Source: a virus (taxonomy: Duplodnaviria; Caudoviricetes). From it: a stretch of 58,461 bases of DNA. The stretch is from positions 1-58,461 of the IMG/VR virus record IMGVR_UViG_3300044678_001332; one strand, 5' to 3'. The position numbers and the translations under genes were made by a program. Positions within the stretch are counted from its first letter, which is position 1. Every line of letters begins with the position of its first letter. Shown in pieces: positions 20,726-57,900 of this stretch. The notes beneath the pieces were generated by a model, which was given only the letters and a program-made list of their open reading frames with translations, searched no databases and was not told where the DNA came from.

Positions 20726-20730
20726 TAACT

Positions 20731-22119: not shown

Positions 22120-22130
22120 TAATATAAACT

Positions 22131-39090: not shown

Positions 39091-42000
39091 ATGTCAGTAA
39101 GCAAGAATACTTGGAACAAAGGATTAAATTCAGATTTATCAAAACTTAAACCTCAACAGGATAGTTACCTTGATGCTAAAAACATCAGGGTAATTACTGA
39201 TGAAGGTTCATCTACACTTGCTATAGAAAACATTAGAGGTAATGTATTTAGTTTTAAATTACCTAAAGTCAATAATACTTATAAAATTAACTTTATTAAT
39301 TTAACTGGTAGTGTTGACATTACAATTTCAAGAGGTTTAAATTCAGAAACATTTACTATACCTAATGTTGAACAAAAGGATAATGAGTTTATAGCAAATG
39401 AACTTAATGCTTTAATCCAAGCATCAACTCTACCATATAAACAATATATTATTGCTTACTTTAATTCAAGATATTTAGTAGTATATGATTTTCTACCACA
39501 ATCTTTACAATCATTAACGCAAGAAATAACTATAACAACTGTTCCTGATTGTTCAGCATTAAGAACTAATGCTGTTGATAATCATACTATTCTTGGTTGG
39601 GGATATTATAATGATAATCTTGTTCTAATTAGTTGTAATGAAACAAGTAACTCTGAAGATCCTTCTGGTGAAGAAGGGTTTGTATGGGATGCAAAATATA
39701 TTTATTTAAATGATACTACAAACAGTATTGAAAATATTGATGGTAATTATTTAAATCCAGCTTTTCATTTAAAGTATGCAGGTAAACTAAATCTATCTAG
39801 ACAGTATGCTATCAATAAACATTTAAAATGTAGATATGAAAGTACAAATACTGTAAGAATAGTTTGGACTGATTGGTATAATAATTTAAGAAATATGAAT
39901 ATTGCTGACCCTCAAGTTTGGGCTACAGTAGAAGAGTTATTATCTTATTTACCAGCACACTTACCACAGAAACCTATTGTAACTAATATTATAAATGGTG
40001 GTGGTATACCATCAGGTAAAATACAATACTTCTATAAACTATTTACTAATCAAGGTGCTGAAAGTAGTTATTCACCATTAAGTAATTTATTAATACTTAC
40101 AGGTGCAGCAGGTACTAACTTTGCTGGACCTGGTAATCCTCCATCAGGAAGTACAGCAATTGGTAAATCTGTACAAATAACTTATTCTGGAATAGATACA
40201 AGTTATGATATTATTAGAGTAGGATATGTTATTTATCAAACTCCTGATTTTCCAGAAGCTTTCTTTTTTGATGAAAAGCCTGTACCTGATGATGGAGTAT
40301 TAGTTTTAGTTCATAATGGTAATGAAAATGATATACCATTAGGATCAGCTACAGAAATAAATAATCTTAATAGACCACCAGAAGTATTTAAAACTATTGA
40401 TGTTGTAAGAAATAGATTGTTTGCTGCTAATGCTAAAACTAAATACTTTGATTTAGATGGAGAATTTGATTCTAGAGTTTATAGATATAATTCTTCTCAA
40501 GTAGCTGATTTATATAATAATGATGATACTTTTGGTACACCATCTGTACAAATAGATTATACTAATCCAATTCCTACAATAACTATTGAAGGAACTACAT
40601 TTACTCCTACTACTCAGCAAGAAGCATATGAAATATTAACTCAAGATATACCTGATACATTTGATTTAATTAATCCATTTAATGATGAAAACCCAGATGC
40701 ATCAGTAAATCCATTCTCTAATGGTAACTGGATTGCTAATTCACAGTTTAAATATCAGAGTGATGGTACAACAATAGGTGGATCAGGACCTAATATATCA
40801 TATGAGTTTGTTTATGAAACTAATATTGCTCATACAGGTAATACATATTTAAGAGGTAATATAAGTATTAATCCAAGAATTGATAGCAATGGTAACTATA
40901 TATCAGAGTTATCTGATGGATATACTTACATGGGTGGTAATAATAATTATTTCCAATCTCACAAAAGTCCTGTATTTGAAACATTGTTTACAGGATATGC
41001 TAGAGGTGAAGTATATAGATTTGGTATTTTATTTTATGATATATATGGTTATCCATCATATGTTAATTGGATAGGTGATATTAAGTTTCCATTTGCTAAT
41101 GATGATAGTGGTGACTTTGGTTTAACAGCACCTACACCTAATACTCCATCAGGACCATGCTTTATAGTTATTCCTGATCCTGAAAGAATGCCTGGAGGTT
41201 GGGATATGTTTAATGCTTTTGCATATAATAGTATAGAGTTTTCATTTGAACCATCTGGTACAGTATTCTTTACATGGAATCCTACACCAAGTAATAATGA
41301 TATACCAGGATTTGTAGCAGCATTTAATGATCCTTCAACAGGTAACACAGGTGGATTAAATGCTTTTGATCCAGGTGATGGTTCTATTATTATACAAGGT
41401 GCTAATGTTAATCAAGATATGCAAATTTTTGCAGATGGAATACCTTTTATAGCTCCATCTCAATTTGAAGATTATACTTTTTCTGCACCTACTAATGATG
41501 TTGTTTTAAAACAATTAGGTATTAAACTTTCATTAGATACATCTACAGACCAGTTTCAAGCTATTAGTGATAAGATATCTGGATGGTCTTATGTAAGAGT
41601 TAGAAGAAATTTAGAAAATAAAAGTAAACTTGGTACAGGATATTTACAACCAACCTTTGCAGGAAATATTGATATACCTAGTGGTGTAGGTGATTATTCT
41701 ATAATGCCTTATGTTAGAGATTATAATAATGATGTTAATGCTCCAACAGCATCTAGTAGCTTTTTATTTAATAGATGGGGATTTGATATAGTTACAGGTA
41801 ATGGAGGACAACTTCCATATGAAAGAATTAGATTAGGTTTTCAAATATTTAATTCTCCTAACTTTTTATTACAACAAGTAGGTCAATTTGCACAAGATGA
41901 TTTTATAAGACTAATAGGTAGAACTGAAAAGAAAGCATATAGAGTAGAATACTCCACACAAAACTCAAGTATATTATCTCCATCATTTATTAACTATGGT

Positions 42001-44013
42001 ACTGTTAATGGAGCATATGCTTTTTGGATAATGTCAGGTGATTATATATATGATTATACTGATACTACACCATTACCAAATGTTATTGATAATCAACTTA
42101 CTACAAGTGATTATTTAAATACAAATCCATTGTATCAAAATGTATTTCAATTAAATGGTTTTAAATATATTGGAAGAACCTTTCCTTCAAATACTCTTCA
42201 AAATCAACCAGCACCATTTAGTAGCATAAGATTTTTTAATATGGCTACATATAATGTTACACAATATGATACCCAATCTCAAGATAAAACATTCTTAGAA
42301 TGGGGTGCTGAAACAATACTTGTTGCATTTGATGGATCAACTTCTAATTTTCCAGATACAAGTGCTATATTTGATAATAGTGATGTAGTAGGAGAACCAT
42401 ATGGTGGATGGATGTTGTTTCCATTTTACTTAGCATCTTATGAAAGATATCTAGTTAAACAATATGGAGGTAATACTAGATCTGCTAGATATGGTAATGA
42501 GTATATATCTACAAATCACTATCTACCATATACAGTAACTACAACAGGTATTGTTGGTAACAATGTATATGGAGGTGATACATGGGTTAATTACTTTGAT
42601 TGGCAAAGAAGTAACCCTAATCCTAGTACAGGATTCTTTAATTATAATCAAGGTTATGAACCACCTCTAACAGATGATAATTATAAAATATTAGGAACAG
42701 CAGTTTACTTTCCAGCAGAATGTTGTTTTCACAGTGAGTTAAATATTAACCCTAACCATGCATCATCAAGAACTACTGATACACCTATAACTATAGATAA
42801 CTATCAATTTAATCCAGCATACTCTCAACAGAATACAACTAATACATTTTTATCTAAATTCTTTTTACAACAAAACTTAGGTGAAGAACCTCATACAATA
42901 TACGGTTCTAATCCTAAATTAGATAATGAGTTATTTGATTCTTGGAGAAACTTTTTAATTAATAATAAACTAACAGTTAATGGTAACTATGGTGAAATTA
43001 ATAGACTAGTTCAGTTTAAAGATAAATTATTTTACTATCAGAATGATGCCTTTGGTGTTGCATCTGTTGATGAAAGAGTACTTGCTAATGAAGCTGATGT
43101 TACTCAAACTCAATTAGGTACAGGTACTTTATTACAAAGATTTGACTATGTATCTACTGAAACAGGAGCTAAACATTCTTTTGCAGTAGAAGCTACAGGT
43201 TCATCTATTTATCACTATGATGCTTTTATTAATAAGTTATTTAAATACTCAACTACTAAAGGTAAAGATGGTACTTCTTCAACAGGTGTATCACCACTTA
43301 CAGATATAAAAGGTTTAAGTGGATTCTTTAGAACAGCATTTACAAATACTGAAATTAAAATAAAAGATAAAACTTTAGCAGCTGGTTCAAGAGTAGGAAT
43401 TACATCTGGATACAATTCAGAATATAACACAGTTTATTTTACATTCTTTGATGAAACTAAAGATGTACAGTATACAATAGCTTATAATGAGTTATTAGAA
43501 GCGTTTGAATCTTTTTATGATTTCTATCCTTCTTTATATATTAATATGAGAAAGAGATTCTTATCAGTAGATCCTTTAAACACCTCATCAACTTATATAC
43601 ATAATTTAGGATTAAGAAATACTTTTTACAATAACACATATCCATCACAAGTTAAATTTAGAGTTAATGAGAATGCTGACTTTGTAAAAACATTTGATAA
43701 CTTCTATATTAATACTGAAGTAATTAGTGTAGCAACAGATCAACAGTTACCTGAAACTATTACTACTTATAGTATATCTAATGACTATCAAATAGTTAAT
43801 GAAACAATTAGTAACTTTACTCAGAAGATTAGATCTTGGAGAAAACAAATACCAAGAGATGAAACTAATCCTAACTTAAATATAAAACCAAGAATATCTG
43901 ACAAATACATTGATGTATTATTTAAACATACTATTAGTGGAGGAGATAAGATATTTAGATTACATGATGTGTTAACTGAATATTCAATGAGAAGTAAAAT
44001 ACTACCTAGATAA
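39091..44013 (+). CDS. Tail stabilisation/muzzle protein (crAss-like)
   Basis: 1640 aa; N-terminal KGLNSD...Y.DA.NIR, NRLFAAN, GY.RGEVYRFGI, DSWR.F, YNE....F.SFYD. Confidence 0.75.
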   Translation: MSVSKNTWNKGLNSDLSKLKPQQDSYLDAKNIRVITDEGSSTLAIENIRGNVFSFKLPKVNNTYKINFINLTGSVDITISRGLNSETFTIPNVEQKDNEFIANELNALIQASTLPYKQYIIAYFNSRYLVVYDFLPQSLQSLTQEITITTVPDCSALRTNAVDNHTILGWGYYNDNLVLISCNETSNSEDPSGEEGFVWDAKYIYLNDTTNSIENIDGNYLNPAFHLKYAGKLNLSRQYAINKHLKCRYESTNTVRIVWTDWYNNLRNMNIADPQVWATVEELLSYLPAHLPQKPIVTNIINGGGIPSGKIQYFYKLFTNQGAESSYSPLSNLLILTGAAGTNFAGPGNPPSGSTAIGKSVQITYSGIDTSYDIIRVGYVIYQTPDFPEAFFFDEKPVPDDGVLVLVHNGNENDIPLGSATEINNLNRPPEVFKTIDVVRNRLFAANAKTKYFDLDGEFDSRVYRYNSSQVADLYNNDDTFGTPSVQIDYTNPIPTITIEGTTFTPTTQQEAYEILTQDIPDTFDLINPFNDENPDASVNPFSNGNWIANSQFKYQSDGTTIGGSGPNISYEFVYETNIAHTGNTYLRGNISINPRIDSNGNYISELSDGYTYMGGNNNYFQSHKSPVFETLFTGYARGEVYRFGILFYDIYGYPSYVNWIGDIKFPFANDDSGDFGLTAPTPNTPSGPCFIVIPDPERMPGGWDMFNAFAYNSIEFSFEPSGTVFFTWNPTPSNNDIPGFVAAFNDPSTGNTGGLNAFDPGDGSIIIQGANVNQDMQIFADGIPFIAPSQFEDYTFSAPTNDVVLKQLGIKLSLDTSTDQFQAISDKISGWSYVRVRRNLENKSKLGTGYLQPTFAGNIDIPSGVGDYSIMPYVRDYNNDVNAPTASSSFLFNRWGFDIVTGNGGQLPYERIRLGFQIFNSPNFLLQQVGQFAQDDFIRLIGRTEKKAYRVEYSTQNSSILSPSFINYGTVNGAYAFWIMSGDYIYDYTDTTPLPNVIDNQLTTSDYLNTNPLYQNVFQLNGFKYIGRTFPSNTLQNQPAPFSSIRFFNMATYNVTQYDTQSQDKTFLEWGAETILVAFDGSTSNFPDTSAIFDNSDVVGEPYGGWMLFPFYLASYERYLVKQYGGNTRSARYGNEYISTNHYLPYTVTTTGIVGNNVYGGDTWVNYFDWQRSNPNPSTGFFNYNQGYEPPLTDDNYKILGTAVYFPAECCFHSELNINPNHASSRTTDTPITIDNYQFNPAYSQQNTTNTFLSKFFLQQNLGEEPHTIYGSNPKLDNELFDSWRNFLINNKLTVNGNYGEINRLVQFKDKLFYYQNDAFGVASVDERVLANEADVTQTQLGTGTLLQRFDYVSTETGAKHSFAVEATGSSIYHYDAFINKLFKYSTTKGKDGTSSTGVSPLTDIKGLSGFFRTAFTNTEIKIKDKTLAAGSRVGITSGYNSEYNTVYFTFFDETKDVQYTIAYNELLEAFESFYDFYPSLYINMRKRFLSVDPLNTSSTYIHNLGLRNTFYNNTYPSQVKFRVNENADFVKTFDNFYINTEVISVATDQQLPETITTYSISNDYQIVNETISNFTQKIRSWRKQIPRDETNPNLNIKPRISDKYIDVLFKHTISGGDKIFRLHDVLTEYSMRSKILPR

Positions 44014-44015
44014 TT

Positions 44016-47000
44016 ATGGCTGAAAAAAATTCACTCTGGAAAAACATTAGAAAAAAAGCAGCACAAAACAAAAGAACTGGTGCTACACCTAAAAAACCTA
44101 CTAAAGAAATGCTTAGGCAAGAAAGGAAAATTAAAGCTAAAAAATATTATGCGGGTGGACCTATAGGTGAAGGTGATGATAAAAATAAAGCATTAAAAGG
44201 TACTAATGATACATTAATAGCACCTACGTTAAATACACAAATTGTGGAAGAAGAAGCTCCACAATGGATGAAAGATAAAGAAACTATTAGACCTGATGAA
44301 ATTAATTTTTGGGAAAGTTTTAATCCTAAAAAATGGGGATTAAATGATTATTCAAATTATAGTTCTTTTAATTCTGCTTTTAGAAATGCTAGAGAAGCTG
44401 GTGAAGATGAGTTTGTATGGAATAAAGAAAGATATAATACTAATTTAATACCTAAAGATATTAGTGATCAGTATTGGGATTCTAAAAAATTTATACAAGA
44501 TTATTATACTAATGAACCTTTTATTCCATTAGATACAAACTATTTTGATCTACATGATTTTAATGATAAACTATCAAAAGATAAATATGGATATACTTGG
44601 CAAGAATACTATGATAAAGTATCAAAAACTCCAGTATATTCTAAAGACAGTGGAAGATCAGATGAAGAAGGAAAGATTCTGGATAGTTATTTTGATACTT
44701 TAGGTTTATTAAGCAGATCTGGTTACTATAGTAGTCTTTCAGATAAAGAAAAATCTGATTATTATACTTACCAAAAAAGTAAGTATGTAGACGCTTTAAA
44801 TGATCCAAATTATTATTTTTCAATTACATCTCAACCAAATCCTAAAAACCGAGTTTTAGGATATCAACATAGTGGTGATAAAAAACTATATGCAAGTAAT
44901 ACTGGTAATAGAGAAGATTTTACAACATTTATTCATGAGCTTTCACATAAAGGGGATTCAAAAAGTAGATCAAGCTATAATAATGAAAGTAACAGAATCC
45001 CTACAGTAGATACAGATGCACTTAATAAGTTTGGTAATAAACTTTCTCAAAAAAGATTTAATTATGTTAGTGATCCTACTGAAACAGAAGCTAGAAAAAT
45101 GTCTACTCTTTATTTTATGAACAAGGTTCTTAAAAAAGATATTAGTTCTGGAAAAATAAAAAATAAAGATCTTACTGAATTGTATAATCTTTATAACTCA
45201 GAAGGAGGATATTGGTCCTCTAAATCTATACCTGGTGATGTAAGAGATTTATTAGAATTATATAAATATCAATGGAATGATTTATTAAAATATTTAAATA
45301 ATGATTTTTCATATTATAAGCCTGTCCAAAAAGCTAAAGGTGGACCTACAGGTAATGACGAAGATCCATTTAAATCAAAATTAAATCAAGGTCAAACTGT
45401 AGGTAAAACATCTCAAGATTGGTTAGCTAACTGGGTACGAAGTCCTAAATTTGCCGAGAGATTAAATCAAAACTTTCCAGCTCCTGCAAGTGATCTTGAA
45501 AAAAAAATATATGGTAATAAAGAAGCTAGAGAAAGAGCATCAGCTGCTAATTTAAAAACTATTAATAAAAGAATACCTGATGTAATAAGTGACATATATG
45601 ATACTAATTTTTTATATAATACAAATCCAGAAAGTAATACTGGACTTTTAAATACATATAGAAGTAGATTAGGAGATCCTAAATCTATTAGAGACTTTGA
45701 TAAAAACATGTCTACTAATCCTCAAGGATTTACTGATCAAGATGGTAGAATTATTATTACAAATGAAGCTAATACTCAATATGGTCCTCAATCAGTTGGA
45801 GTACATGAATTAACTCATAAAGTATCAGAAGGTGATAAAACATTAGATAAATTATTTAGAGGTAAATTTCAAACACCTAGTCCTGATAAAATTGATGCTA
45901 ATTATAAGAAAGATGAAATGTATCCTTTCTTAATGCAAATGAGATTTGATAATAAATTTCAACCAGGAGAAGAAATTACTCCAGAAAGATTAAAACAAAT
46001 TAGAGAGTCAGGACCTAATAATCATTTATTTAGATATTATAATGATGATGAAATATCTAAATACTTAAATACACTTGCAAGTAATCAGACACAAGCACCT
46101 ATGCAATATGCAGCTAAAGGTGGATATATGTATGCAGAAGGTGGTGATGGTGAAGATGAACCTGTAACATTATATAAAAAAGCTTATTATAATCCTGATC
46201 AAGATAGAATAATTCCATATGCTGGTAGTCAAGATAATGAATACTATGTAACACCTGATACTCCTCAAGGTATTGATTTTGAAAGAAGACTTCCTGAACT
46301 TGAAATAACAGATGATTATAATTCAACAGAAGATTATTATGGTAATAAAAGGTATATTCCTTCTGAAACAGGATTTATTCCAAATCCAAATTATAAACCA
46401 TTAGCATCAGGTAGAGCTGAACCAACACTAGGTCCAGTTGAAGCTGCTTTATTTGCACCTGTTGCAGGAGCTGTTGCAGGAACTATGGCATCTAAAGCTG
46501 TTCCTGCTGTTGTATCAGCTTTAGAATTACCTGCAGTAGTAGGTGGTAGAACTATACCTTTGTTAACTGGAAATAATATTTTAGGTGTAACAGGAGGAAT
46601 AACTGGTGCTAATATGCTAGGATCAGATATAAATAGTGGTTACTATACATCAAATGCATCTATTGAAGATAAAATTGCAAGAGGTTTAGAAACAGGACTT
46701 CTTATAGGAACTTCTCCAGGTATGTTACCAGCAATGGGTTCGGCATATAAAAATGTTAAAAACTCTTTAGGTAAAAATAAAGAATTATTATCTAATTCTG
46801 CGTCTAATCAATTACCTCCACCACCACCAGAAACATTTAATATAATAGATGGTTATGTTCCTGGTAGTTATGTACCTGATTATGCATCTCAATTTACTCC
46901 ATTAGAAACTTTTAATAATTCAAAATTTTCTCTTAAAGATATTAATAATAAAATTAAATCTTTAAAAAATATTACATATAAAGGTAAATCCATATTTAAA

Positions 47001-50000
47001 AATAAAAAAATTGGACACTATGATGAACCATTAAAAAATGATTCTTCATATGAAACTTGGAAAAAAACAGTTTTAGGAGAAAATGCTGATAGTGTAATAT
47101 CATTACAAGAATTTAAAGATGCTCATAAACAAAGTATAGAATATTTTAAAAGTATTGGCGCACCTCTTACTACAGGAAAAGAACATGGTTTGTTTATAAA
47201 AAACATACTTGCTGATAGAATACCAAATTTTACTTCTCTTCAATTTGATGATAAAGGTAGAAGACTTATATTTGATCCAGATATGTATGGTTCAGATATA
47301 CAACCAGCTGAATTGAGACAAATGGAAAAGTTTATTACAGGTGAGGGATATGATATTACTAAAATGACTCCTAAAGAAAGAATGTTAATGGAAGCTTATG
47401 CTCATGGATATGATACTTCATTAAATGAAGTATTAAGAGGTAGTAGTCAAGGTCCAGTTTCTAAATATTATTTAGAACAAGGTCAAATATTAAATGAAGG
47501 TATTTTAAAAAATAAATTTCAAAATCCATCTTTTGTAAGAAGAGGTGTACAATCAGATTATACTGTAGAACTTTTAGACCCAATAACATATAAACCAACA
47601 GGAGTAACTAAATTAAGATCTGAATTAACTAAAGGTGATACTTTTATAGATAAATCATTTTTATCAACTTCTGCAACACCTAGTTATTGGGGTCCTACAG
47701 AACTTTCAGAATTAATAGAAATACCTGGAGGATCATTACAATCTTTTGCAGTACCTGAAGCTGCTACTGCAACACGCTTTAGAGGTGAAAATGAAGCTAT
47801 ATTACCTACTGGTTTAATTAGACAAGTAATTGATAACAATCTTCACAATCATCCAGAATTTTTTGATTGGAGAGCAAAATTTAGAACAAAAATATTAAAT
47901 CCTTACGAAGATGGTGGTACTATTAATCCATACATGTATTATGCAGGTGGACCAATGCAATATAAAAGAGGTGGATTACTTAAAGATATAGGTTTAGGTG
48001 TTGCTGATTTTGCATTAAGTACTATTGGTGGTGTTACTGGTATTAAATCAATGAAAGATATTGTTAATGAAAAACAATATTCTAATGATAGATTTGATGC
48101 AGGTGCAAACTTTGCAGGTAGTCTTGGAAGTACTGCTTTAAAATTAATACCTGTTACAGCACCTATTGCAAATGCTGCAGGTGTGGTTGGTGGTGCAGCT
48201 AACAAAGCTTTTGGTATTGATGCAGCAAATTATAATCCTAATCAAGAAGTAAGTGACTTAGAAAAAGCAGGTAATATTGTTGGACAAGCTGGTAATGTTG
48301 CTAGTATGTTTATGGGTAGTACGTCAGGTGTATCAGAAGATGCTGGTAAATTTATGCAAGGTGTAGATAAAATAAATCAATTTGGACAATCACCTGCAGG
48401 TCAACTTTTAAACCAAGGACTATCTTTTGAACAAGGTGGTGATATAAATAAATTTAATAACTTTACAAACTCTATGAGAGACAGATACAACAGTTATAGA
48501 AACAAGTACTCTAGAGGAGGAAAGGTTCAAGATAATGCTGAAGAAAAACTTGAATATTTTGGTATGACTAAAGTACCTAATCATTCAGGGTTTCATTATG
48601 AAAATCCTAATGGAGGTTCATATGGAGGAACAAATGCTTCATTTGAAAAAAATGAAATTGTTTTACATGCTAAAGGTGGTCCTACTCCAGGACCTGGAGA
48701 ATTTGTTTTTCCTTCTGAAGTAAATGGTCAAAAAAACAGACCAGCATTTCTTGAATTAGATAAAAATGGTATGCCAATTCCTTTAAACATGACTATAGCT
48801 CAATTTGTAGAAAGAGAAGTTAATAAAGGAAGTGAATTTAGAAAAGAAAATTCTTTAGGAAGAGAAAGAGTAGATATGGCTAATCAAAAAGCAATGGACA
48901 TGGTAGCTTATTATGATCAACTTGATCAACAGCAAGCACAACAAAAAGAAATGATGGTTAATGGTGCTTTACAATATGCAGCTGCAGGTGGTAAGATAAA
49001 TAAAGATATTGAAAAGATTTTAAATGATGATATTCAAAGTTATATTAAAGCAGATAATTATTATGCTTATGGTGGATATCTTCCTAAAAATAAAAAATTT
49101 AACATGCCTTACTCTAATGGTGGTAAACTACCTAAAGAAGTTTTAAGAGCAAGAGTTCAAGCTCACATGTCAATTAAAGAAGCTAATTCTTATGTAGATC
49201 AATATGCTAATGGAGGATCAATGGATCCACCAACTGCTAAAAGAAGTTATGTAAAGCAAGGTTCTAATAGTATGCTAGGTAATAATTTAAATAATACTGA
49301 GTTTGGTTCTAGAATTATAAATGAATATGGTAATGGATTACCTAATGATACTTCTTATATTTATCAATCTCCTACTGAAGATTATTTCTACAATACAGGG
49401 CAGAATACTCAAAATGGTAAACCAGTATCTAATTATAACTCAGGTTCTGTAGCACCTTTTAGTGCTAATGTATATCAAGATAGAATTAAAAGATTAGCAG
49501 GTTATGCAAATGGTGGTCCTGTAGTATCTAATGTAAATCAAGACTTTGGTTTATATGCACAGAACAGAGGTGGTATGATGATGGCTAATGGTGGTATGAT
49601 GCCACAGAATGATAGTATGTCTAAACAAATAGCTGCTGCTTTGCAACAAGGTGCAGATCCTCAACAATTACTTCAACAATTACTTCAACAGTTAGTTAAG
49701 TCAGGAATGGATCCTCAACAAGCTCAAGCAATGTTAGAAAATATTATGGGTAGTATGCAAGCATCACAAACTCAAGCTCCTATGATGGCTATGGGTGGTG
49801 AAATGTATGCTCCTGGTGGATTCTTTGATAATTTACGTTCTGATTTTAACCATGGTAGAAGAATGGCATTTAACAAACCTTATAGAAATGCTTATAACTT
49901 AGCTAAAGGTTATAATACTATTAATCCTAAAAATTACCCAAATGTTTTTACAGAAGGTAATGGACAAGTAGGAGGTGAAGATTATGCTGGTTTATATCCT

Positions 50001-50726
50001 ATGACACAAGATGAAGCTACACAATACCAAGGTTATGACCCTACAAAAGTTACACCTTCTTCTACTACTAAAAGTGGATTACCAGTAGGTAATGAAGATA
50101 TATTTGGTAATGATAAATTAGGAAAAGGTTTAGCAATAGGTCAAGCTGCAATTCCATTAATAGAAGCAGGTTATCATTTGTTTAATAAACCTAAACATAT
50201 TAAAGCACCTGTTGTACAAGATGCAACTGTTAATTATGAACAATCTAGAATAAGAGATCAAAGACAAACAAATTTGACTAGAAGTTCTTATTTAAATATG
50301 TTAAGAAATTCAGGTATGTCAGCAAATCAATTTGCTGGTAATGCTAAAGATTATCTTTTAAATTCTGCTGCAGAACAAGCAGGTAGAGATGCAACAAGTA
50401 TTCAAAATGAACAAAATCAAAATGCTGTTGCTAGAGCACAAGCTGAAAATTTAAATGCTCAAAATAGATTTGCAACTGATCAATTAAATTATGAGATAGA
50501 TCAAAACAGACTTGGTAATATATTTGGTGCATTTAATAATGCAGCTACTATGGGAATGCAAGGTTACAATGATATAAAACAAAATGAATATGATAGAATG
50601 AGAGCATTGAGTACACAATCAGAAAATGTAGTACCTGTAAATGTTAATGGTAGAATATATCAAGCAACAAAAGGACCTGATGGTTATTACTTTAATGGTA
50701 AAAAAATAGCAGAATTTGGAGTTTAA
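44016..50726 (+). CDS. Multidomain putative virion cargo protein: two HExxH zincin-like domains, ADP-ribosyltransferase domain, repeated xxxGG motifs
   Basis: HELSH (44934), HELTH (45804), R-G/STS/ENE ART motifs (~47538-47795), ~19 GG motifs; positioned after the muzzle gene. Confidence 0.7.
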   Translation: MAEKNSLWKNIRKKAAQNKRTGATPKKPTKEMLRQERKIKAKKYYAGGPIGEGDDKNKALKGTNDTLIAPTLNTQIVEEEAPQWMKDKETIRPDEINFWESFNPKKWGLNDYSNYSSFNSAFRNAREAGEDEFVWNKERYNTNLIPKDISDQYWDSKKFIQDYYTNEPFIPLDTNYFDLHDFNDKLSKDKYGYTWQEYYDKVSKTPVYSKDSGRSDEEGKILDSYFDTLGLLSRSGYYSSLSDKEKSDYYTYQKSKYVDALNDPNYYFSITSQPNPKNRVLGYQHSGDKKLYASNTGNREDFTTFIHELSHKGDSKSRSSYNNESNRIPTVDTDALNKFGNKLSQKRFNYVSDPTETEARKMSTLYFMNKVLKKDISSGKIKNKDLTELYNLYNSEGGYWSSKSIPGDVRDLLELYKYQWNDLLKYLNNDFSYYKPVQKAKGGPTGNDEDPFKSKLNQGQTVGKTSQDWLANWVRSPKFAERLNQNFPAPASDLEKKIYGNKEARERASAANLKTINKRIPDVISDIYDTNFLYNTNPESNTGLLNTYRSRLGDPKSIRDFDKNMSTNPQGFTDQDGRIIITNEANTQYGPQSVGVHELTHKVSEGDKTLDKLFRGKFQTPSPDKIDANYKKDEMYPFLMQMRFDNKFQPGEEITPERLKQIRESGPNNHLFRYYNDDEISKYLNTLASNQTQAPMQYAAKGGYMYAEGGDGEDEPVTLYKKAYYNPDQDRIIPYAGSQDNEYYVTPDTPQGIDFERRLPELEITDDYNSTEDYYGNKRYIPSETGFIPNPNYKPLASGRAEPTLGPVEAALFAPVAGAVAGTMASKAVPAVVSALELPAVVGGRTIPLLTGNNILGVTGGITGANMLGSDINSGYYTSNASIEDKIARGLETGLLIGTSPGMLPAMGSAYKNVKNSLGKNKELLSNSASNQLPPPPPETFNIIDGYVPGSYVPDYASQFTPLETFNNSKFSLKDINNKIKSLKNITYKGKSIFKNKKIGHYDEPLKNDSSYETWKKTVLGENADSVISLQEFKDAHKQSIEYFKSIGAPLTTGKEHGLFIKNILADRIPNFTSLQFDDKGRRLIFDPDMYGSDIQPAELRQMEKFITGEGYDITKMTPKERMLMEAYAHGYDTSLNEVLRGSSQGPVSKYYLEQGQILNEGILKNKFQNPSFVRRGVQSDYTVELLDPITYKPTGVTKLRSELTKGDTFIDKSFLSTSATPSYWGPTELSELIEIPGGSLQSFAVPEAATATRFRGENEAILPTGLIRQVIDNNLHNHPEFFDWRAKFRTKILNPYEDGGTINPYMYYAGGPMQYKRGGLLKDIGLGVADFALSTIGGVTGIKSMKDIVNEKQYSNDRFDAGANFAGSLGSTALKLIPVTAPIANAAGVVGGAANKAFGIDAANYNPNQEVSDLEKAGNIVGQAGNVASMFMGSTSGVSEDAGKFMQGVDKINQFGQSPAGQLLNQGLSFEQGGDINKFNNFTNSMRDRYNSYRNKYSRGGKVQDNAEEKLEYFGMTKVPNHSGFHYENPNGGSYGGTNASFEKNEIVLHAKGGPTPGPGEFVFPSEVNGQKNRPAFLELDKNGMPIPLNMTIAQFVEREVNKGSEFRKENSLGRERVDMANQKAMDMVAYYDQLDQQQAQQKEMMVNGALQYAAAGGKINKDIEKILNDDIQSYIKADNYYAYGGYLPKNKKFNMPYSNGGKLPKEVLRARVQAHMSIKEANSYVDQYANGGSMDPPTAKRSYVKQGSNSMLGNNLNNTEFGSRIINEYGNGLPNDTSYIYQSPTEDYFYNTGQNTQNGKPVSNYNSGSVAPFSANVYQDRIKRLAGYANGGPVVSNVNQDFGLYAQNRGGMMMANGGMMPQNDSMSKQIAAALQQGADPQQLLQQLLQQLVKSGMDPQQAQAMLENIMGSMQASQTQAPMMAMGGEMYAPGGFFDNLRSDFNHGRRMAFNKPYRNAYNLAKGYNTINPKNYPNVFTEGNGQVGGEDYAGLYPMTQDEATQYQGYDPTKVTPSSTTKSGLPVGNEDIFGNDKLGKGLAIGQAAIPLIEAGYHLFNKPKHIKAPVVQDATVNYEQSRIRDQRQTNLTRSSYLNMLRNSGMSANQFAGNAKDYLLNSAAEQAGRDATSIQNEQNQNAVARAQAENLNAQNRFATDQLNYEIDQNRLGNIFGAFNNAATMGMQGYNDIKQNEYDRMRALSTQSENVVPVNVNGRIYQATKGPDGYYFNGKKIAEFGV

Positions 50727-50738
50727 AAAATATAAGAT

Positions 50739-52979
50739 ATGAATTTATACAAGTTTCAACCTAGACAATATGTAGATGTATTACCTGATTTACCATTAGA
50801 ATGGTTACAAGGTCAGGTTGATAAAAAACAGAATGTTATTAATGCTCAAAGAGATGAGCTTAATAAAGCTGCTGAAAACTATTTAAAATTAAACTATGGA
50901 ACTTTTGGTAGAGATCTTTATGATCAAATAAATAAAGACTACCAAGGAAAGTTTAAACAAATGTCAGAAGACTTGTTAACTAGACAAGACATTCCTGGAG
51001 TAGCATCATCATTTTCTAATTTAGTTAGAGAAGCAGCATTTGATCCTAGAATCAAAGATCTTAATAAAGAATTTGCAGCTTATCAGAAATATTTAGAAAC
51101 TAAAATGAATCCTGAATTTCATGGTGCTATAGATTTAACTCAATATGGAAAACAAATAGGTGAAGACTTTAATGTTGATCAAGCTATTGCACAGTATCCT
51201 TTAGTTAAATATGAAGATAGTATTCAACCTTATGTTGCAACAGCTGAGAAATTTAAACCTTATAAAGATGTTAATACTGATAAGTGGGTATTTAGTAATC
51301 CAATATCAGGTGAAACATTTGTTCGTAATACTAAAGAAGAAATTGAACAAGTTTCTAAACCAAGATTACAAGAATATTTTGAAAGTCAGTATTATAATTG
51401 GAACATGGATGCTAGATCTAAGTATGATAAGTTAAAAGGTACTAATGTAGATTTAAATCAATTTGATCCTAACTTTAATTTCAAAGATGAAAATTTAGGT
51501 AGAGATATTTGGAGAAAAAAGTATTTACCATATTTACAAATGGCTTATACTCAAAGAGATGAAGAAACTGAAGTTACACCAATGGGTGGAGGAAAACCAA
51601 CATCTTCAAATAATCCTAATAAACCACCAGCTGATGTTAAATTAGAGTATAACATGATGACTTCAATGTATGGTATTGGTGTTTTAGGTAATAGATTATC
51701 TACAGGTGAAGAAATAAGAACTTATGATGATGCAATAGGTAATATTCAAGATCATAAAAATAGAATAAGTACATTAGTTCGTCAAATGTTTGAAGCATCT
51801 AAAAAAGGTGATCATGCTACAGTACTTACTTTAGATAAAGAAAGACAAAATCTAATGTCAGATTTAACTACTTGGGAGTCTTGGCAAAAACTTATTGAAG
51901 AAGATTTGTATAATAAAAATTTAGGACAAGATTTAAGTAATGCTTTAAAACTTGAAAAAGATTGGATTGAAAGTCATTCAGGTCAAATTGCAGATTTTGG
52001 TGCATTAAGTTTAATTTATAAAAAACCAGTTGAACAAATAAAGAATGATATTTTTTATAAAAGAGATACTACATATGAAGGAGTTGATTATGATGAAATA
52101 GATGCTTTCTTAGAAGAAGCTAGTAAAATAAGAAGAGCTAATTTAAAAGGTGATGCATCTAAGCTTTATGAAAGGTGGGAAAAATATTTAAACTATCAAA
52201 CACAAGGTACATCATATCAACCTAATAATGATGCTTCTAGACAAAGATTAGATCAAATGGTTTTATCTTTAATTACTTCTGGTAAAAAACCTTATAACTT
52301 ACAGACTGATAAAGAAGTTTCTGATTTTAAAGCTTTACAAGAATATTTATTAAAATTGCAAGCTGAAAATGGTTCATTTAATACTAAAGGTTTAAGTACA
52401 GAAATTCTTTTAGATGAAGAAGATGGTCCTGTATTAATATTACATGGATTAAATATAGATGGTAGTAAAGGAGAAGATATTCCTAATTCTATAGAATTTG
52501 ATATTAGAGATACACCTAGTTTATTAAATGTTCTTTATGAAATAGATCCTAGTAGACAAACTCGCAATGCTTACTTTGTTGAAGCTGCAAGATCATTAAA
52601 AGAAAATAAAAACAAGAAGGGATCATTTACTTTAAATTCTTATGGTAATGTTCAAGAAGAAGTTAATTTCTCAAGAGTACCTATAGGTGATGGTAAATAC
52701 ATGTTTAAAGATTCAGACAATGTAATGTATGCTAGTTTAAATGATTTAATTCAAACTAAAACACTAATTGCTGCTGAAGAGGATAAAAATATTGAAGTAG
52801 CTAGACAAAAATTAAGTCAAGATTTTAATATGGCTGTTCAATCAGGAGATGTTGAATTAATTAAACAAGCTATGGCTAAAGCTCAAAATTTTGAAATTCT
52901 TTTAGAGAAAGAACTAAAACAGAAGCGAGAGGGAAAGGGCAAGCCTCAGGTGAAAGGTCCGTTCAACCTGGGGCAGTAA
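50739..52979 (+). CDS. Putative virion cargo/ejected protein (0-frame product)
   Basis: 746 aa, helical; position among crAss-like cargo genes. Confidence 0.65.
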   Translation: MNLYKFQPRQYVDVLPDLPLEWLQGQVDKKQNVINAQRDELNKAAENYLKLNYGTFGRDLYDQINKDYQGKFKQMSEDLLTRQDIPGVASSFSNLVREAAFDPRIKDLNKEFAAYQKYLETKMNPEFHGAIDLTQYGKQIGEDFNVDQAIAQYPLVKYEDSIQPYVATAEKFKPYKDVNTDKWVFSNPISGETFVRNTKEEIEQVSKPRLQEYFESQYYNWNMDARSKYDKLKGTNVDLNQFDPNFNFKDENLGRDIWRKKYLPYLQMAYTQRDEETEVTPMGGGKPTSSNNPNKPPADVKLEYNMMTSMYGIGVLGNRLSTGEEIRTYDDAIGNIQDHKNRISTLVRQMFEASKKGDHATVLTLDKERQNLMSDLTTWESWQKLIEEDLYNKNLGQDLSNALKLEKDWIESHSGQIADFGALSLIYKKPVEQIKNDIFYKRDTTYEGVDYDEIDAFLEEASKIRRANLKGDASKLYERWEKYLNYQTQGTSYQPNNDASRQRLDQMVLSLITSGKKPYNLQTDKEVSDFKALQEYLLKLQAENGSFNTKGLSTEILLDEEDGPVLILHGLNIDGSKGEDIPNSIEFDIRDTPSLLNVLYEIDPSRQTRNAYFVEAARSLKENKNKKGSFTLNSYGNVQEEVNFSRVPIGDGKYMFKDSDNVMYASLNDLIQTKTLIAAEEDKNIEVARQKLSQDFNMAVQSGDVELIKQAMAKAQNFEILLEKELKQKREGKGKPQVKGPFNLGQ
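52931..52974 (+). promoter_or_regulatory. -1 programmed ribosomal frameshift signal
   Basis: G GGA AAG in the correct phase, 5-nt spacer, then stem GCCTCAGGT-GAA/TTC-A-ACCTGGGGC. Confidence 0.8.
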
Positions 52980-54895
52980 GTAGCTTTAACAAAGCATTAG
53001 GATCAGTAGAACAAGACCCTAAAGAAGGTTATAGATCAACTAACCCTAACTCATCAGCAGTTGGTAAGTATCAACATATATGGGGAATACATGGAGAACC
53101 ACAAAAGGGTCAAACAATTTCTGAAATTGAAAGAGTAACAGGAGTTAAATCAAAAGAAGATTATTTAAATAACCCAGAAGCTCAAGAAAAATATCAGGCT
53201 CATTTAGAAAGTCATTATAAAAGAAATGTACCTGGATTAAGAAAAAGATTTCCTGGAGTAACTAAAGGAATTGATGATGAAGTATTAATGGCTCTTCAAC
53301 ATCTTTCAGGTTTAGGAGATGCTAGAATATATTTAGATACTTTAGAAAAAACTAAATCTTATGATGCTGCTCAACAAGCTTTAAATCAATCTATAGAAAA
53401 AAGAACAGGTGAGGCTCCTCCAACTAATAAAACAGTTTTTGAATATTTAAATAATTTTTCTGAAAATTTAGAAAAGGATAATACTCCTAAAACACCTCAA
53501 ATATTTGCTCCTAAAAAACAACCTCAATTAAATCCTAATCCTACATTTACTGCATCACCATTTGCTACACCTAAAGTTACTCAAACTAAACCTCAACCTC
53601 AAGAACCTGTTGATAGTAGATTTAGAGTATTACCAGAAGTTCTTCCTAAAATAGAACAACCTAAAACTGTTACTGAAACTAAAGATCCTAATTTTGTTGA
53701 AAAGGTTTGGACATACCTGTTTGAAAGTGATGTTCCTATTAAAGAAACTAGTAAAATAAAAGAAGCAGCTGATGGTAATCCTGTAGAAGATGAGGAGTTT
53801 GTTGCAAGTAATGATTCTAATGTAGCATTAACACCTAAAGCTACACCTAAATTATCTAATGTTAGAAGAGTAACTGAAGATCCAAAAATTAAACAAAGAA
53901 AAATAGAAGATGAAAATTTTACAAAAAATATTGGATATTCAAAAGTTAATGATAAAGTTTATAGAGGTAAGTCTCATAAAAACTTAGATTTAGGTAGTTA
54001 TTCTAAAATGATTGTTGATATGTCAGATGGTATAACAGTAACTTATCAACCTAGAAATGCTAGAAAAAATGATAGAACAGAAGTTAATAATGCAATAGCT
54101 ATTACTGATTATTTATATGACTTTGACTTTACAAATAATTGGTATGATAAACAAGCTGATTATCAAATTACAAAATTAAAAGAAAGCTTATTTAAACCTA
54201 AAGACTGGGAAAAAAGAACTTATATTAACGCAGAAGGTAAAAGAGTAAAATATGGTCCATGGTCTAAAAATTGGGATAATGCTTTAGATGGTAGAAAATT
54301 TGTAACTGTACGAGAACCTTTAGGTAATAATAAATATAAAATATCTATTAAACCTATTGATAATCTCACTGAAAAAGATTTTGAAGAGTCTACAATATAT
54401 AGACAAGGGTACGCTAAATTATCTGATCTTGATATAACACCTGATCAGAAAAAAATTAAATTATTTGCTAAAAAAGATGCTTTTGTTGGTCAAGGACTTC
54501 CTTTTAGAGATGAAAATAATAAAGAACATGGACTAAGAGTAAGTGGAGGTAAGGGTAATGTGAGTGTAAATTTAAAAGGTGAAAATGTAAAAGGATATTT
54601 AAATATATCTAGCCTTAATCAATTTGGTGCTTATTTAGGAGGTACTGTTACTATTATATCTGAAGATGGTAAAATAGCTAAAAAAGTTAGTGGTAGTTTA
54701 AAAGACATTTTAGAAACTGCTTTCTATATTAAAAAACAAACTGGTAGTAAAGAAGTTTACTTTTTACAAAGCGATGCAGGTAGTATGAATATAAAAGCTG
54801 ATGCTAATAATGGTAAAATTACACCTGCTCAATTAGCAATTTCTAGAAACCAAGAACCTCAAGCAGGTGCTGCAGAGATACTTTTAAATGAATAA
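52937..54895 (+). CDS. -1 frame extension: lysozyme/lytic-transglycosylase-like domain plus C-terminal region (includes ORF 53288..54895)
   Basis: Frame open from 52895 to the stop at 54895, first ATG at 53288. Upstream of that ATG it encodes ALGSVE...GY...NPNSSAVGKYQ...YLNNPEAQE. Confidence 0.7.
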   Translation, partial: GQASGERSVQPGAVSSFNKALGSVEQDPKEGYRSTNPNSSAVGKYQHIWGIHGEPQKGQTISEIERVTGVKSKEDYLNNPEAQEKYQAHLESHYKRNVPGLRKRFPGVTKGIDDEVLMALQHLSGLGDARIYLDTLEKTKSYDAAQQALNQSIEKRTGEAPPTNKTVFEYLNNFSENLEKDNTPKTPQIFAPKKQPQLNPNPTFTASPFATPKVTQTKPQPQEPVDSRFRVLPEVLPKIEQPKTVTETKDPNFVEKVWTYLFESDVPIKETSKIKEAADGNPVEDEEFVASNDSNVALTPKATPKLSNVRRVTEDPKIKQRKIEDENFTKNIGYSKVNDKVYRGKSHKNLDLGSYSKMIVDMSDGITVTYQPRNARKNDRTEVNNAIAITDYLYDFDFTNNWYDKQADYQITKLKESLFKPKDWEKRTYINAEGKRVKYGPWSKNWDNALDGRKFVTVREPLGNNKYKISIKPIDNLTEKDFEESTIYRQGYAKLSDLDITPDQKKIKLFAKKDAFVGQGLPFRDENNKEHGLRVSGGKGNVSVNLKGENVKGYLNISSLNQFGAYLGGTVTIISEDGKIAKKVSGSLKDILETAFYIKKQTGSKEVYFLQSDAGSMNIKADANNGKITPAQLAISRNQEPQAGAAEILLNE

Positions 54896-54900
54896 TTAAC

Positions 54901-54908
54901 TATATTTG
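54901..54908 (+). promoter_or_regulatory. Bacteroidota-type -7 promoter element
   Basis: TATATTTG 23 nt upstream of the ATG at 54932. Confidence 0.55.
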
Positions 54909-54931
54909 CATAATAATCATTATTGTATAAT

Positions 54932-57900
54932 ATGGATGAATTAGACAAATTGTTAGCAGAGGGTAAGATTACAGCCTCTGAATATGCTAGACTTGTAAGA
55001 CAACAAACAGAAAGCCAAAGTGCAGATTATAGAAAGAGTGAAGTTTTAGAAGCTGCTGCAGGTATTCAACAATTTTATAAATCACATTTAGGTATAGATC
55101 CTAGTGACATTGCTTCTGGTCAACCAGAATATCAAATGTCAATGTCACCTGAAGAACTTGAAACTTATACTTCAAGAGGTATTACTCCAAGTACTTACAG
55201 AGATTATGAAGATGATAGAGCTGAAGCTCAGTCATTTGCTGACAAACTTGGAAATGGTTTAACTAAACTTATTGGTAAATCTGCTACTGCAGTAGCTGGT
55301 GGTATTGGTATGGTACCATCAATAGCAGCTAATGTTGCAGGACAGTTAGAGGATATAGTTAATGGTGACAATACTTCATTCCATGAAATATATGATAATT
55401 TTTATTACAGAGCATTAGATGAAGCTAATGCAGCAATGGATGAAGCATTACCTCATTATGTTACAAGAGAAGAAGAAAATGCTTCTCTATTAAATTCATT
55501 AGGTACTGCTAACTTTTGGACTAATGACTTTTTACAAGGTGCTTCATTTGTTATAGGTGCAATAGCAACTGAAGGTTTAATGACTCTTGGTGCAGAAGCA
55601 TCAGGTCTTAGAAACTTAACTAGAACATTAGATGCTGTAAAAAAAGGAACTAAGGTTGATGATATTGCTGGGTTAATGGGTAGGTCAGCAACTGCTCAAA
55701 CAGGTTATGAAGCTGTTACATTAGGTAGACAGATAATAACAGGTGCTGGTTATGAGTCTTCAGTAGAAGCATTATCTTTTGTTAAAGATGCTGAAAGACA
55801 ATGGTTAGATGATTATAGATCACAACACTTAGAAGAACCTACTGAAGAAGAATATGCTAAAGCAATGGAAGAAATTTATTCAGTTGCTAATGGTGTATTT
55901 GGAATGAATATGTTAGTTGTTGGTACAACTCAAGCTAAAACCTTACCAGGATTATTTGCACCTAAATTAGCTAACTCAATTAGAAGAGTATTAGGTAAAG
56001 GAGAAATAGCTGAAGCATCTCAAATAATTCAAACATCTAAACTATCTGCTAAACAATTAGATAGAGCTGCTAAAAACTTAGGTAAAACAGTTGATGAAGT
56101 AAAAGCAATACCTAACATAGCTAAAGAAGCTACTTATAGTAAATTAGGTAAGATTACAAGTAGAACTGCTAGAGGTTTAGAAGGTGCTGTATTTGAAGGT
56201 GGACAAGAAGGTTTACAGAAAGCAATTAGTTATAGTGCATTAGATTACTTAAATGATAGAATGGACCCTGCAGCAAATGAAGACTTTATGGATTCATGGA
56301 TGTATGGATTAACTAAAGCTTTTGGTAATAATGCTGAAAGTTGGAAAGAAATATTTATTGGTGCATTGTTAGGTTCTGTAGGTGGACCAGGTGGTAAAGG
56401 TGGATGGCAAGGTGGAATTTATGAAGGTTTTAGAGACAGAACTAAATCTGAGAACTTTCAAAATGTATTAAACCTTGCTAATAATTATTCTAAAAACTCA
56501 GAAGGTATTTTAAATAATTATTTAAAGCATTGGAACCTAACTTTAAATCTTCAAGATAAAAAGGACAGGGCTTATGATAAGAATGACATGTATGACTATC
56601 ATTCTCAAGAAGCTAAAGAAGTTTTTAATTATTTAAACTTCATGAAGAAAATGGGAAGACTATCAGAGGTTGATGAACAACTTAGTGATAGTCTTAACAA
56701 GTTAAATAAGAAACAATTTGAAGAACTGTATGGTTATAAAAACTTAACTAATACTGAATTTACAAAACGTAAAGCAGAATTGTCTCAAAAGATAGCAAGA
56801 GAAATTAGTGATGTTTCTGAGTCTGCAGATAAAGGTGCTTCTATTTACAGAGGTGGAGATCAGGATGTTTTAGATGGTATTGCATATACTATTTATGCTC
56901 ATAAGAATGCTGATAATAGAGAAAGTAAGATAGCAGAAGAAGTTAGTAAGCTTGTAGGAATTATAGATCCTAGAAGTTTAGTTGAAATATCTAGAGATAA
57001 CCAAAGATTAAAATTAAAAGATGGTTGGTTATACACTTATAAAAGTAAACTTAAAGGTTTAAAGGCTGCTAAAAAAGCTTTAGAAAACAGAATGTTATCT
57101 GGAAGTGTTAATAAAAAAGATGTACAAATAGATGAGCTTGAAAAGAAAATTAAACAGAAAGAAAAAGAACTTAAAGCTCTTTTGAAAGAAGAATATAATA
57201 CAAGAAAGGCTTTAAGAAAATCTCCAATAACTCCAGAATATGAATTAGATTATGATGAGTTTGAAGAAAAGGTAAACAAGCAAGCTGAGTTTCTTGAAAA
57301 ACTTGAAAAGCATTATGAAACTGATGGTATAGATAAATCAGAAATAGAACAGAAACTTGCTGACCTTAAGAAATTAGCAAGAGATAGAGAAAAGTATATT
57401 GGTGAATTCAATAGACTTCTTACATCAGAAGGTCTTAAAGAACTTGAAACTAGTATTGAAGGTTTAAGAAAAGAGTTTGCCAAAGAGCAGGTTGATGCTA
57501 CTACTATGGCTATAATGGAAGTTGAAAGATCAAAAAAAGCTTCTCAAAGAGTTTATAAAGCACAAGAACTTGCATTTAAATTAAGAGCTAAAAGACTTTC
57601 AGGAATTGAACAGCCTATTACTGAAGATCTAAATGCTGAAACTATTGATACTCTATCTGATAATGCAAATCAGTATTATACTCAGATGATAGCTATAGCT
57701 AACAGTATAGTTGGTGCTAGTCAAAATAATGATGATAAGATTGCAGCATTAGAAAGTTTAATTAAACAGTTTGCTGAAGAAGTTGCAAATGTTCCAGAAG
57801 AATTAAGAAGAGATTATGAAATCCTACTTGATAGATTTAAAACACAAATAGAAAGTTTAATTAATTCTTTAAAGAAAACACCTGGTAGTAAATCAGGTCA

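Follow-up and report, generated by a model that had tools for sequence, protein, structure and literature searches.

A conserved Gly-Gly junction motif bounds gained, lost and exchanged modules in an enlarged crassvirus cargo protein C1

No phages of the human gut are more abundant than the crassviruses, whose proteins enter the cell before the DNA by a route still debated. The present analysis concerns a single gene in the virus record IMGVR_UViG_3300044678_001332, of which the whole stretch of 58,461 nt was analysed (hereafter the window; CheckV completeness 60%). Open reading frame (ORF) 44016..50726 on the + strand, open under table 11, encodes a protein of 2,236 residues (249.5 kDa) in which short motifs ending in Gly-Gly recur from one end to the other. 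The original prediction, made from the letters of the window, had described it as a crAss-like cargo gene whose effector modules are delimited by xxxGG motifs, these being either sites at which a packaged precursor is cut or a repeated capsid-targeting tag. What, then, is this protein, what does the motif mark, and is it cut?

Pfam recognises in the window the structural half of a crAss-like phage, i.e., portal, crassvirus major capsid protein, ring proteins 1, 2 and 3/4, and muzzle. The gene starts 3 bases past the end of the muzzle gene and, because the muzzle gene lies directly upstream, sits at the position of cargo protein 1. In crAss001 the slot after the muzzle is occupied by gp45, the cargo protein C1, which is stored stretched from tail barrel to portal and is thought to be the first protein ejected. 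BLASTP did not link the two proteins significantly (best E 0.17), and PF25725 (crAss_CARG1) gave no match on the 2,236-residue protein itself. Among its homologs, PF25725 matched 10 of the 21 that were scanned, five of them over the cut-off, in the region aligned to residues ~1500-1660. When a model of the protein core was searched with Foldseek, the top match was the portal-bound gp45 chain 7qog_M, with a probability of 0.96; VIA-align superposed residues 1506-1643 on gp45 425-552 in that chain with Z 9.2 and a root-mean-square deviation of 2.8 Å over 109/126 residues, the next row having Z 3.4. From the position after the muzzle, the CARG1 matches in homologs and the fold match to 7qog_M, we conclude that ORF 44016..50726 is an enlarged ortholog of crAss001 C1, and the earlier call of a crAss-like cargo gene is upheld. 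The two proteins also share, in the same order, a basic N-terminus, a Gly-rich hydrophobic segment, a portal-binding domain and a C-terminal domain, together with a near absence of cysteine and an Ala-x-Gly-Gly motif at the junctions between segments. They differ in size (842 residues in gp45 versus 2,236) and in that gp45 is without the two zincin-like modules and the ADP-ribosyltransferase (ART) present in the protein studied here, which we call C1.

All 19 of the xxxGG motifs previously listed were found in C1 and in the order given, with their Gly-Gly pairs starting at residues 47, 442, 702, 709, 1300, 1311, 1319, 1474, 1501, 1554, 1658, 1686, 1702, 1733, 1833, 1852, 1859, 1927 and 1934. 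Enrichment was assessed against 5,000 composition-preserving shuffles of C1. Gly-Gly pairs as such number 28 versus 17.1 expected, a count equalled or exceeded in 18 of the 5,000 shuffles. None of the shuffles reached the counts observed for [YFM]xxGG (14 versus 2.1 expected), AxGG (11 versus 1.2) or [YM]AxGG (7 versus 0.1). Within the window the motif is specific to C1: the remaining 50 ORFs hold seven [YFM]xxGG summed, at most one per ORF and each near expectation, and Gly-rich ORFs elsewhere in the window are without the pattern, such as the one at 26851-28803 with 18 Gly-Gly pairs, just one of them in a motif. The motif is also conserved. At 17 sites, 84-100% of the homologs aligned there keep the Gly-Gly pair, amid flanks that are 35-70% identical, and at YSNGG 71% do so. 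The remaining site, HAKGG (1551-1555), lies within the portal-binding domain and is kept in 31%; being inside a domain and poorly kept, it is not a junction motif, and C1 has 18 junction motifs versus about 6 in gp45. Gly-Gly pairs outside motifs are kept in 12-75% of aligned homologs, with one exception at 87%, inside CARG1. Both glycines are retained jointly in 584 of the 650 cells aligned, and the pair does not drift towards Gly-Ala or Gly-Ser.

The same motif characterises the whole family. Among 5.8 billion proteins searched there were 56 homologs, so that the family set comprises 57 proteins including C1. In 55 of the 56 homologs [YFM]xxGG occurs 7-20 times versus 1.2-2.5 expected; the other one, P0030, has three. 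The sequence context was compiled from about 1,607 Gly-Gly pairs in the 57 members. Met or Gln is found at position -4, Tyr at -3 in 30% (Tyr, Phe or Met in 44%), Ala at -2 in 43% and any residue at -1; downstream, Pro or Tyr is found at +1 and Met, Ile, Leu or Val at +2 (GG.[MILV] in 837 of 1,607 pairs). The wider consensus is thus a seven-residue element, aromatic/Met-Ala-x-Gly-Gly-x-aliphatic, and its register is mostly fixed: [YFM]A.GG occurs 325 times versus 7.8 expected, compared with 92 times when the spacing is one residue longer and 49 when it is one shorter. Pro stands right after the Gly-Gly pair in 258/1,607 cases (16%), among them the leader junction, itself conserved, and five of the 19 sites in C1. 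Tandem pairs are frequent, 149 of the 1,154 inter-motif segments being only 7-8 residues long. The idea that translation might start internally, at Met-rich flanks of the motifs, was considered and ruled out, because +2 takes Met, Ile, Leu or Val interchangeably.

This clade is small. Searched with the CARG1 stretch, phmmer reached 25 clusters among 1.84 billion representatives; whole C1 gave no match at E 1e-5 by tblastn against 50,697 phage records, and nothing at E up to 1 by phmmer against PDB sequences. The motif nevertheless extends further, since the C1 proteins of five gut crassviruses (crAss001 gp45, p-crAssphage gp47, DAC15_59, IAS gp060 and crAss002 gp30) have AxGG in few copies each, 19 in sum versus 4.3 expected, and their C2 neighbours have one in sum versus 1.4 expected. 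Judged by these sequence counts, the motif is an ancestral feature of C1, older than this clade.

The muzzle gene and, downstream of it, C1 with its motif-bounded parts comprise the following features, all on the + strand.

39091..44013, +: muzzle (tail-tip gatekeeper) gene; PF25731 crAss_MUZ E 1.1e-127, PF25729 E 8.2e-08.
44016..50726, +: C1 ortholog, putative polyvalent effector chain without cysteine; 56 homologs of 1,239-3,014 residues.
44016..44159, +: basic N-terminal leader, residues 1-48, with 16 Lys or Arg versus 3 Asp or Glu; ends YYAGG, then Pro.
44160..45344, +: module 1, residues 49-443, HExxH at 307-311; ends KAKGG.
45345..46145, +: module 2, residues 444-710, zincin-like domain 448-691; ends in the tandem AAKGG / YAEGG.
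46146..47918, +: module 3, residues 711-1301, with an Ala/Gly/Val-rich hydrophobic segment (803-851), a proline run and the ART (1116-1267); ends YEDGG.
47919..48530, +: three junction motifs close together (YYAGG, YKRGG, with FEQGG and YSRGG farther along), flanking a short helix and a hydrophobic segment rich in Gly and Ala (1319-1396).
48531..48944, +: CARG1-type portal-binding domain, residues 1506-1643, by fold match to 7qog_M.
48978..49820, +: back stretch, residues 1655-1935, dense in motifs (nine of the junction type); short helices alternate with disorder.
49821..50723, +: C-terminal domain, residues 1936-2236, of the kind that most often comes last in the family.

Scans of the whole protein with Pfam and PHROGs returned no family, and the ART surfaced only when C1 was scanned in pieces. 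It matches PF03496 over residues 1116-1267 (E 2.4e-06; 27.5 bits versus a cut-off of 23.4), and the Arg, Ser-Thr-Ser and Glu-x-Glu signatures, which we take to be the catalytic residues of an R-S-E type ART, are visible in its sequence. It ends about 30 residues ahead of YEDGG, so that the motif does not stand right after the ART domain as had been stated. For module 2, residues H597, E598, H601 and E634 are invariant (columns H168, E169, H172 and E205 of the homolog alignment). In the AlphaFold model it forms a compact domain over 448-691, with a predicted local distance difference test score (pLDDT) of 80.4 and a predicted template modelling score of 0.76, and both motif-bearing flanks have pLDDT <50, the motif tails being disordered and away from the active site. 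The folds that resemble it most do so weakly (M13 peptidases, Z 5.7-6.0; lethal factor, Z 5.2), and the further zincin leads are Pfam DUF6782 at E 0.17 and an Atlas lead to LPD23 with a score of 0.81. Module 1 matches no Pfam family and has an Atlas lead alone. With an ART over the Pfam cut-off and zincin-like HExxH modules (residues 307 and 597), the earlier description of effector modules holds. Across the family HExxH is found in 32 of 57 members, in one to three copies versus ~0.01 expected each; in the 25 members that are free of HExxH the motif density is unchanged, and gp45 also has the motif without HExxH. No cysteine occurs in 51 of the 57.

The ends of the protein are more uniform. 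The leader forms an aligned block over residues 1 to ~50 in nearly all 56 homologs, and its Gly-Gly pair, the first of the protein, is covered by 47 homologs and kept in 94% of those. At the other end, one C-terminal segment cluster (cluster 0) closes the segment string in 55 of 57 proteins. A membrane-inserting segment ahead of CARG1 is typical of gp45-like C1 proteins; the two candidates here, 803-851 and 1319-1396, both rich in Ala and Gly, attain just 1.4-1.5 in 19-residue hydropathy. The AlphaFold model of the core, residues 1290-1940, has a mean pLDDT of 52.7 and is confident over 1486-1672. At four motifs the Gly-Gly pair comes 1-2 residues after the end of a helix; confidence is high at two of them (model positions 369 and 444), moderate at the third and low at the fourth. 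The other motifs stand in low-confidence linkers. Tandem pairs occur in the back stretch as QNRGG/MANGG and MAMGG/YAPGG. In the region aligned to C1 ~1700-1830, most homologs carry a conserved module of ~60 residues between two junction motifs, and the segment of C1 is shorter and different.

To what extent do modules come and go at the motifs? In BLASTP alignments of C1 with its 56 homologs, 59% of 286 internal block ends fall within 10 residues of the 19 motifs, compared with 14% under a uniform null; when the motifs were shifted circularly, 59% was not reached in any of 313 trials. All against all, 8,823 of 16,016 block ends (55%) lie near motifs versus 16% after shifting, and in 56 of 57 proteins all 60 shifts were beaten. 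Alignments tend to extend to a conserved motif and then stop in the variable linker, so this statistic shows that modules are bounded by motif-bearing linkers, and does not show the mechanism. Single proteins make the same point. In P0002 the leader Gly-Gly is joined straight to the sequence that follows KAKGG-443 in C1, the 395-residue module 1 being missing exactly between two motifs. This protein is 82% identical to C1 over 440-1465 and only 32% identical in the CARG1 region, so that the CARG1 region is also mosaic. When all 57 proteins were cut at the motifs, the 452 segments of at least 60 residues fell into 82 clusters, 41 of them singletons. The back end, i.e., hydrophobic segment, CARG1 and C-terminal domain, is constant across the family, and the front cassettes are differently arranged in almost every protein. 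These results agree with the claim that the motifs fall at module boundaries, to which the compact module 2 between its motif-bearing flanks also testifies, and the check that had been proposed, whether homologs gain or lose domains at the motifs, was positive: modules are gained, lost and exchanged exactly there. On the comparison of sequences, swapping of modules at the motifs is well supported. Module 1 also occurs in two proteins that are not C1-like, P0063 and P0064, which have another N-terminus and a Cys-containing C-terminal tail, indicating that this cassette moves between protein types. Stand-alone forms were not seen: eight shorter homologs mostly come from short contigs or begin at internal Met residues, with no clean gene split at a motif, and module 2, searched by itself in proteins 146-468 residues long, gave nothing.

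We then considered whether the motif is cut, as proposed for a packaged precursor; none of the results shows cutting, and several speak against it in the virion. According to the part of Bayfield et al., 2023 available to us, density is clear for gp45 residues 425-552 on the portal wing, and in that part no word starting with 'cleav' or 'proteoly' occurs. Residues 425-428 of gp45 are the motif Ala-Phe-Gly-Gly, followed by W429, and chain M of PDB 7QOG is aligned from residue 425. Since the chain is modelled from 425 through the motif into W429, that Gly-Gly-Trp bond is intact in mature crAss001 particles. Pro also follows 16% of the Gly-Gly pairs, and Gly-Gly-specific cysteine proteases are not known to cut before proline. 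Because 51 of the 57 proteins, C1 included, have no cysteine, a cysteine protease of the adenovirus or African swine fever virus (ASFV) type acting in cis is excluded; because 25 of the 57, and gp45, are without HExxH, self-processing in cis is not a general rule. The capsid, portal, ring, muzzle and downstream cargo genes are without the motif, and crAss001 gp47, gp49 and gp50 have no AxGG. The Pfam scan of the window, in which no search was aimed at prohead protease families or PF00770, found no peptidase other than an M15 lysin. In related records, all of them 42-86% complete and hence weak as evidence of absence, ThiF was found in 0/4, Prok-JAB in 0/5 and C48 (PF02902) in 0/5. As for a repeated capsid-targeting tag, nothing points to the motif as such, and the basic 48-residue leader is the better candidate.

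A possible peptidase was observed outside C1. In two distant crassviruses the RNA-polymerase-associated cargo protein carries a Tyr-His-Glu-Ala-Phe-His zincin signature near its C-terminus, at residue 2157 in crAss001 gp47 (ORF L001:16120-23145) and at residue 1800 in the large ORF downstream of C1 in a relative (L008:16047-21983); Pfam gave no family at the signature in either. The p-crAssphage ortholog of this protein is annotated as fused to a zincin protease. In the available portion of Drobysheva et al., 2020, the fused polymerase-block polyproteins of crAss-like phages are described as 'likely cleaved', and that zincin is named; Iyer et al., 2017 (PMC5512222), likewise as far as its accessible text goes, predicted self-processing of polyvalent proteins by zincins. 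A separate observation in crAss001 is an adjacent pair, gp76 and gp77 (L016:11395-13793), one gene ThiF/E1-like (E 8e-16) and the other matching prokaryotic JAB weakly, at E 4.9e-4 and short of the cut-off; the pair resembles a ubiquitin-like conjugation pair. A link between this pair and the Gly-Gly motif found no support, the pair not being found in four to five incomplete relatives.

Our preferred reading is that the junction element is an uncut hinge and crossover element of C1, and we place it near an even chance, though on the lower side. In C1, which is enlarged threefold, the enzyme cassettes, namely the two zincin-like modules and the hydrophobic segment with the ART, are preceded by the basic leader and followed by the back half of hydrophobic segment, portal-binding domain and C-terminal domain, leader and back half being conserved. 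The seven-residue element at every junction would be a built-in junction of the C1 family that is not cut in the virion; it would end the last helix of a module and provide a flexible Gly-Gly hinge, which may let the modules fold, unfold and refold independently during N-to-C threading through the tail. Its recurrence at every boundary suggests that recombination joins cassettes there, and such exchange would make C1 a fast-changing polyvalent effector, with enzymes presumably delivered into the host. Several observations weigh against this. A hinge or helix stop needs one glycine, leaving the kept pair, the Ala at -2 and the fixed register unexplained, and precision of this kind usually means that a partner reads the motif. 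Nor does a hinge require tandem segments of 7-8 residues, which make up 149 of 1,154. Of the 15 motifs in the modelled core, 11 lie at pLDDT <50, so that the helix-end pattern rests on few sites, and the crAss001 evidence concerns one motif in one phage and is silent on events after ejection. At the DNA level, direct repeats occur only as the peptide and codon bias produce them (the motif Gly codons include 27 GGT and 11 GGA, versus 130 and 62 overall); with no DNA-level signal, recombination at the motif is deduced from its outcome.

A first rival takes the motifs as protease sites: C1 would be packaged whole and then processed, most plausibly once ejected. A zinc peptidase of the cargo, either an HExxH module of C1 or the zincin of the polymerase-associated protein, would cut it and so free the ART and the other modules as effectors. 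We consider this unlikely, though it deserves attention. The strictly kept Gly-Gly in fixed register at module boundaries resembles viral polyprotein sites, HExxH is hugely over-represented in the family, and the zincin of the polymerase-associated cargo protein, present in crAss001 gp47, L008 and p-crAssphage, is an order-wide candidate to act in trans, in line with the two published proposals of cleavage and self-processing, as far as their available text goes. Space adds a further argument: residues 1-1505 of C1 amount to 168.9 kDa, and twelve copies would come to ~2 MDa, versus the ~0.4 MDa of tail storage in crAss001 given in the available part of Bayfield et al., 2023, which suggests that an uncut chain would be unable to keep the crAss001 topology, N-terminus in the tail and CARG1 on the portal, at that copy number. 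The intact and ordered motif in crAss001 virions speaks against cutting, as do the prolines, the conserved leader junction among them, the 25 members without an HExxH of their own, and the lack of the motif in the polymerase-block proteins gp47, gp49 and gp50. In the model of module 2 the motif tail is not placed in the active site, JAB, C48 and ThiF are missing from the incomplete records (a weak point, as said), and tandem sites 7-8 residues apart would free useless heptapeptides. A more specific version, in which C1 is a self-dismantling injected polyprotein, packaged uncut, with its junctions cut after ejection by its own or the polymerase-associated cargo zincin, and the freed effectors reshuffled at those same sites, seems to us slightly less likely still.

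If a partner reads the motif without cutting it, the element may be a repeated docking peptide, recognised by the portal, the ring proteins, the inner face of the capsid or a packaging chaperone, that loads or orders the unfolded cargo. The fixed register, the kept Gly-Gly and the hydrophobic residues at -3 and +2 would suit a peptide that lies in a groove, and the common tandem pairs would add avidity. The motif is, moreover, confined to C1, the sole cargo protein seen bound to virion parts, and both ordered pieces of gp45 begin at or just past a motif, the portal domain at AFGG 425 and the tail-barrel helix 214-245 four residues past SAYGG. Of the seven gp45 motifs, however, one is ordered in the reconstruction and the others are invisible, so that most are not stably bound to symmetric parts; no partner was found, and in the models the motifs are low-confidence linkers. 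We regard docking as improbable. That the motif is a by-product of a Gly/Tyr/Ala-rich composition or of low-complexity linkers can be given practically no weight: C1 is rich in Gly and Asn (196 each among 2,236 residues), but the shuffles, the conservation of the sites amid divergent flanks and the single motif in the Gly-rich ORF 26851-28803 refute it.

Comparison with known systems sets the uncut hinge and crossover reading in context. The polyvalent proteins of Iyer et al., 2017 (PMC5512222) are described, in the accessible text, as joining several conflict-type domains, including zincin-like peptidases and ARTs, and are predicted to enter the host with the DNA; that text does not mention crAss-like phages or linkers. 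C1 likewise joins at least two conflict-type domains (the ART and two HExxH modules, one modelled as zincin-like), and is unlike them in being a structural ejection protein that bears the modules, with a single recurring motif at their limits. With the polyproteins of adenovirus and ASFV, C1 shares a conserved Gly-Gly at segment boundaries with a hydrophobic residue a few positions upstream. In those viruses Gly-Gly sites at virion protein boundaries are cut by a viral cysteine protease. The C1 family differs in being mostly free of cysteine (51/57), in the Pro that often follows Gly-Gly, in the one crAss001 site that is intact in the solved virion, and in that no C48-type protease was found in the five records, which are incomplete. 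Polymorphic toxins have one motif (VENN in CdiA, for example, or the core-end motif of Rhs), one C-terminal cassette and an immunity gene. As in C1, a short conserved motif stands where variable cassettes meet a conserved delivery part, and cassettes are exchanged there; the C1 family, by contrast, consists of phage virion proteins that hold several internal cassettes and up to ~20 motifs. The T4 Alt protein is a separate head-packaged ART that is injected with the DNA, and its short N-terminal targeting peptide is removed by a prohead protease. C1 also carries an R-S-E type ART; this one is an internal module of an ejection protein, and no prohead protease was seen in the Pfam scans of the window, none of which was aimed at those families. 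A literature search, in which the motif letters were not searched and subscription journals were not covered, found no description of the motif or of an ART- or zincin-bearing C1, and in a 2023 review of Crassvirales 'ADP-ribosyl', 'zincin' and 'polyprotein' have 0 occurrences each.

These results suggest that a first-ejected cargo protein can act as a carrier for enzyme cassettes, including an ART, and they offer a concrete explanation for the diversification of effector sets in crassvirus C1. At each module boundary stands the same short motif, which even the minimal crAss001 protein has, and this provides a simple rule for parsing giant unannotated cargo proteins into modules. Whether the junctions are cut or uncut bears on the published model of a single gp45 chain that spans tail and capsid; if C1 were indeed a self-dismantling polyprotein, each infection would deliver free effectors, i.e., the ART, the peptidases and others.

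Several further features of the locus were recorded. No cysteine is found in C1 or in the three ORFs after it (window 44016-58459), and the muzzle protein has six. In crAss001, gp45-gp50 (up to 2,412 residues) have 0-3 Cys each, and the ejected cargo proteins are nearly cysteine-free in the relatives L006 and L008 as well. This scarcity may reflect unfolded passage across the oxidising periplasm. In two relatives the order of large ORFs is ~1,500 residues, C1 homolog, ~650 residues and at least 1,979 residues, the ~1,500-residue ORFs being matched by size. Among the tail genes, a 189-residue ORF at 34365-34934 matches the CHU_C sorting domain of type IX secretion (E 4.5e-13), which points to a Bacteroidota host. 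Two neighbouring ORFs at 20674-22862 carry collagen triple-helix repeats (E 3e-19 and 2e-4) and are probably fibre proteins. On the - strand, a 120-residue ORF at 4697-5059 gives a borderline STIV B116-like match (E 1.1e-05; 25.9 bits versus a cut-off of 26).

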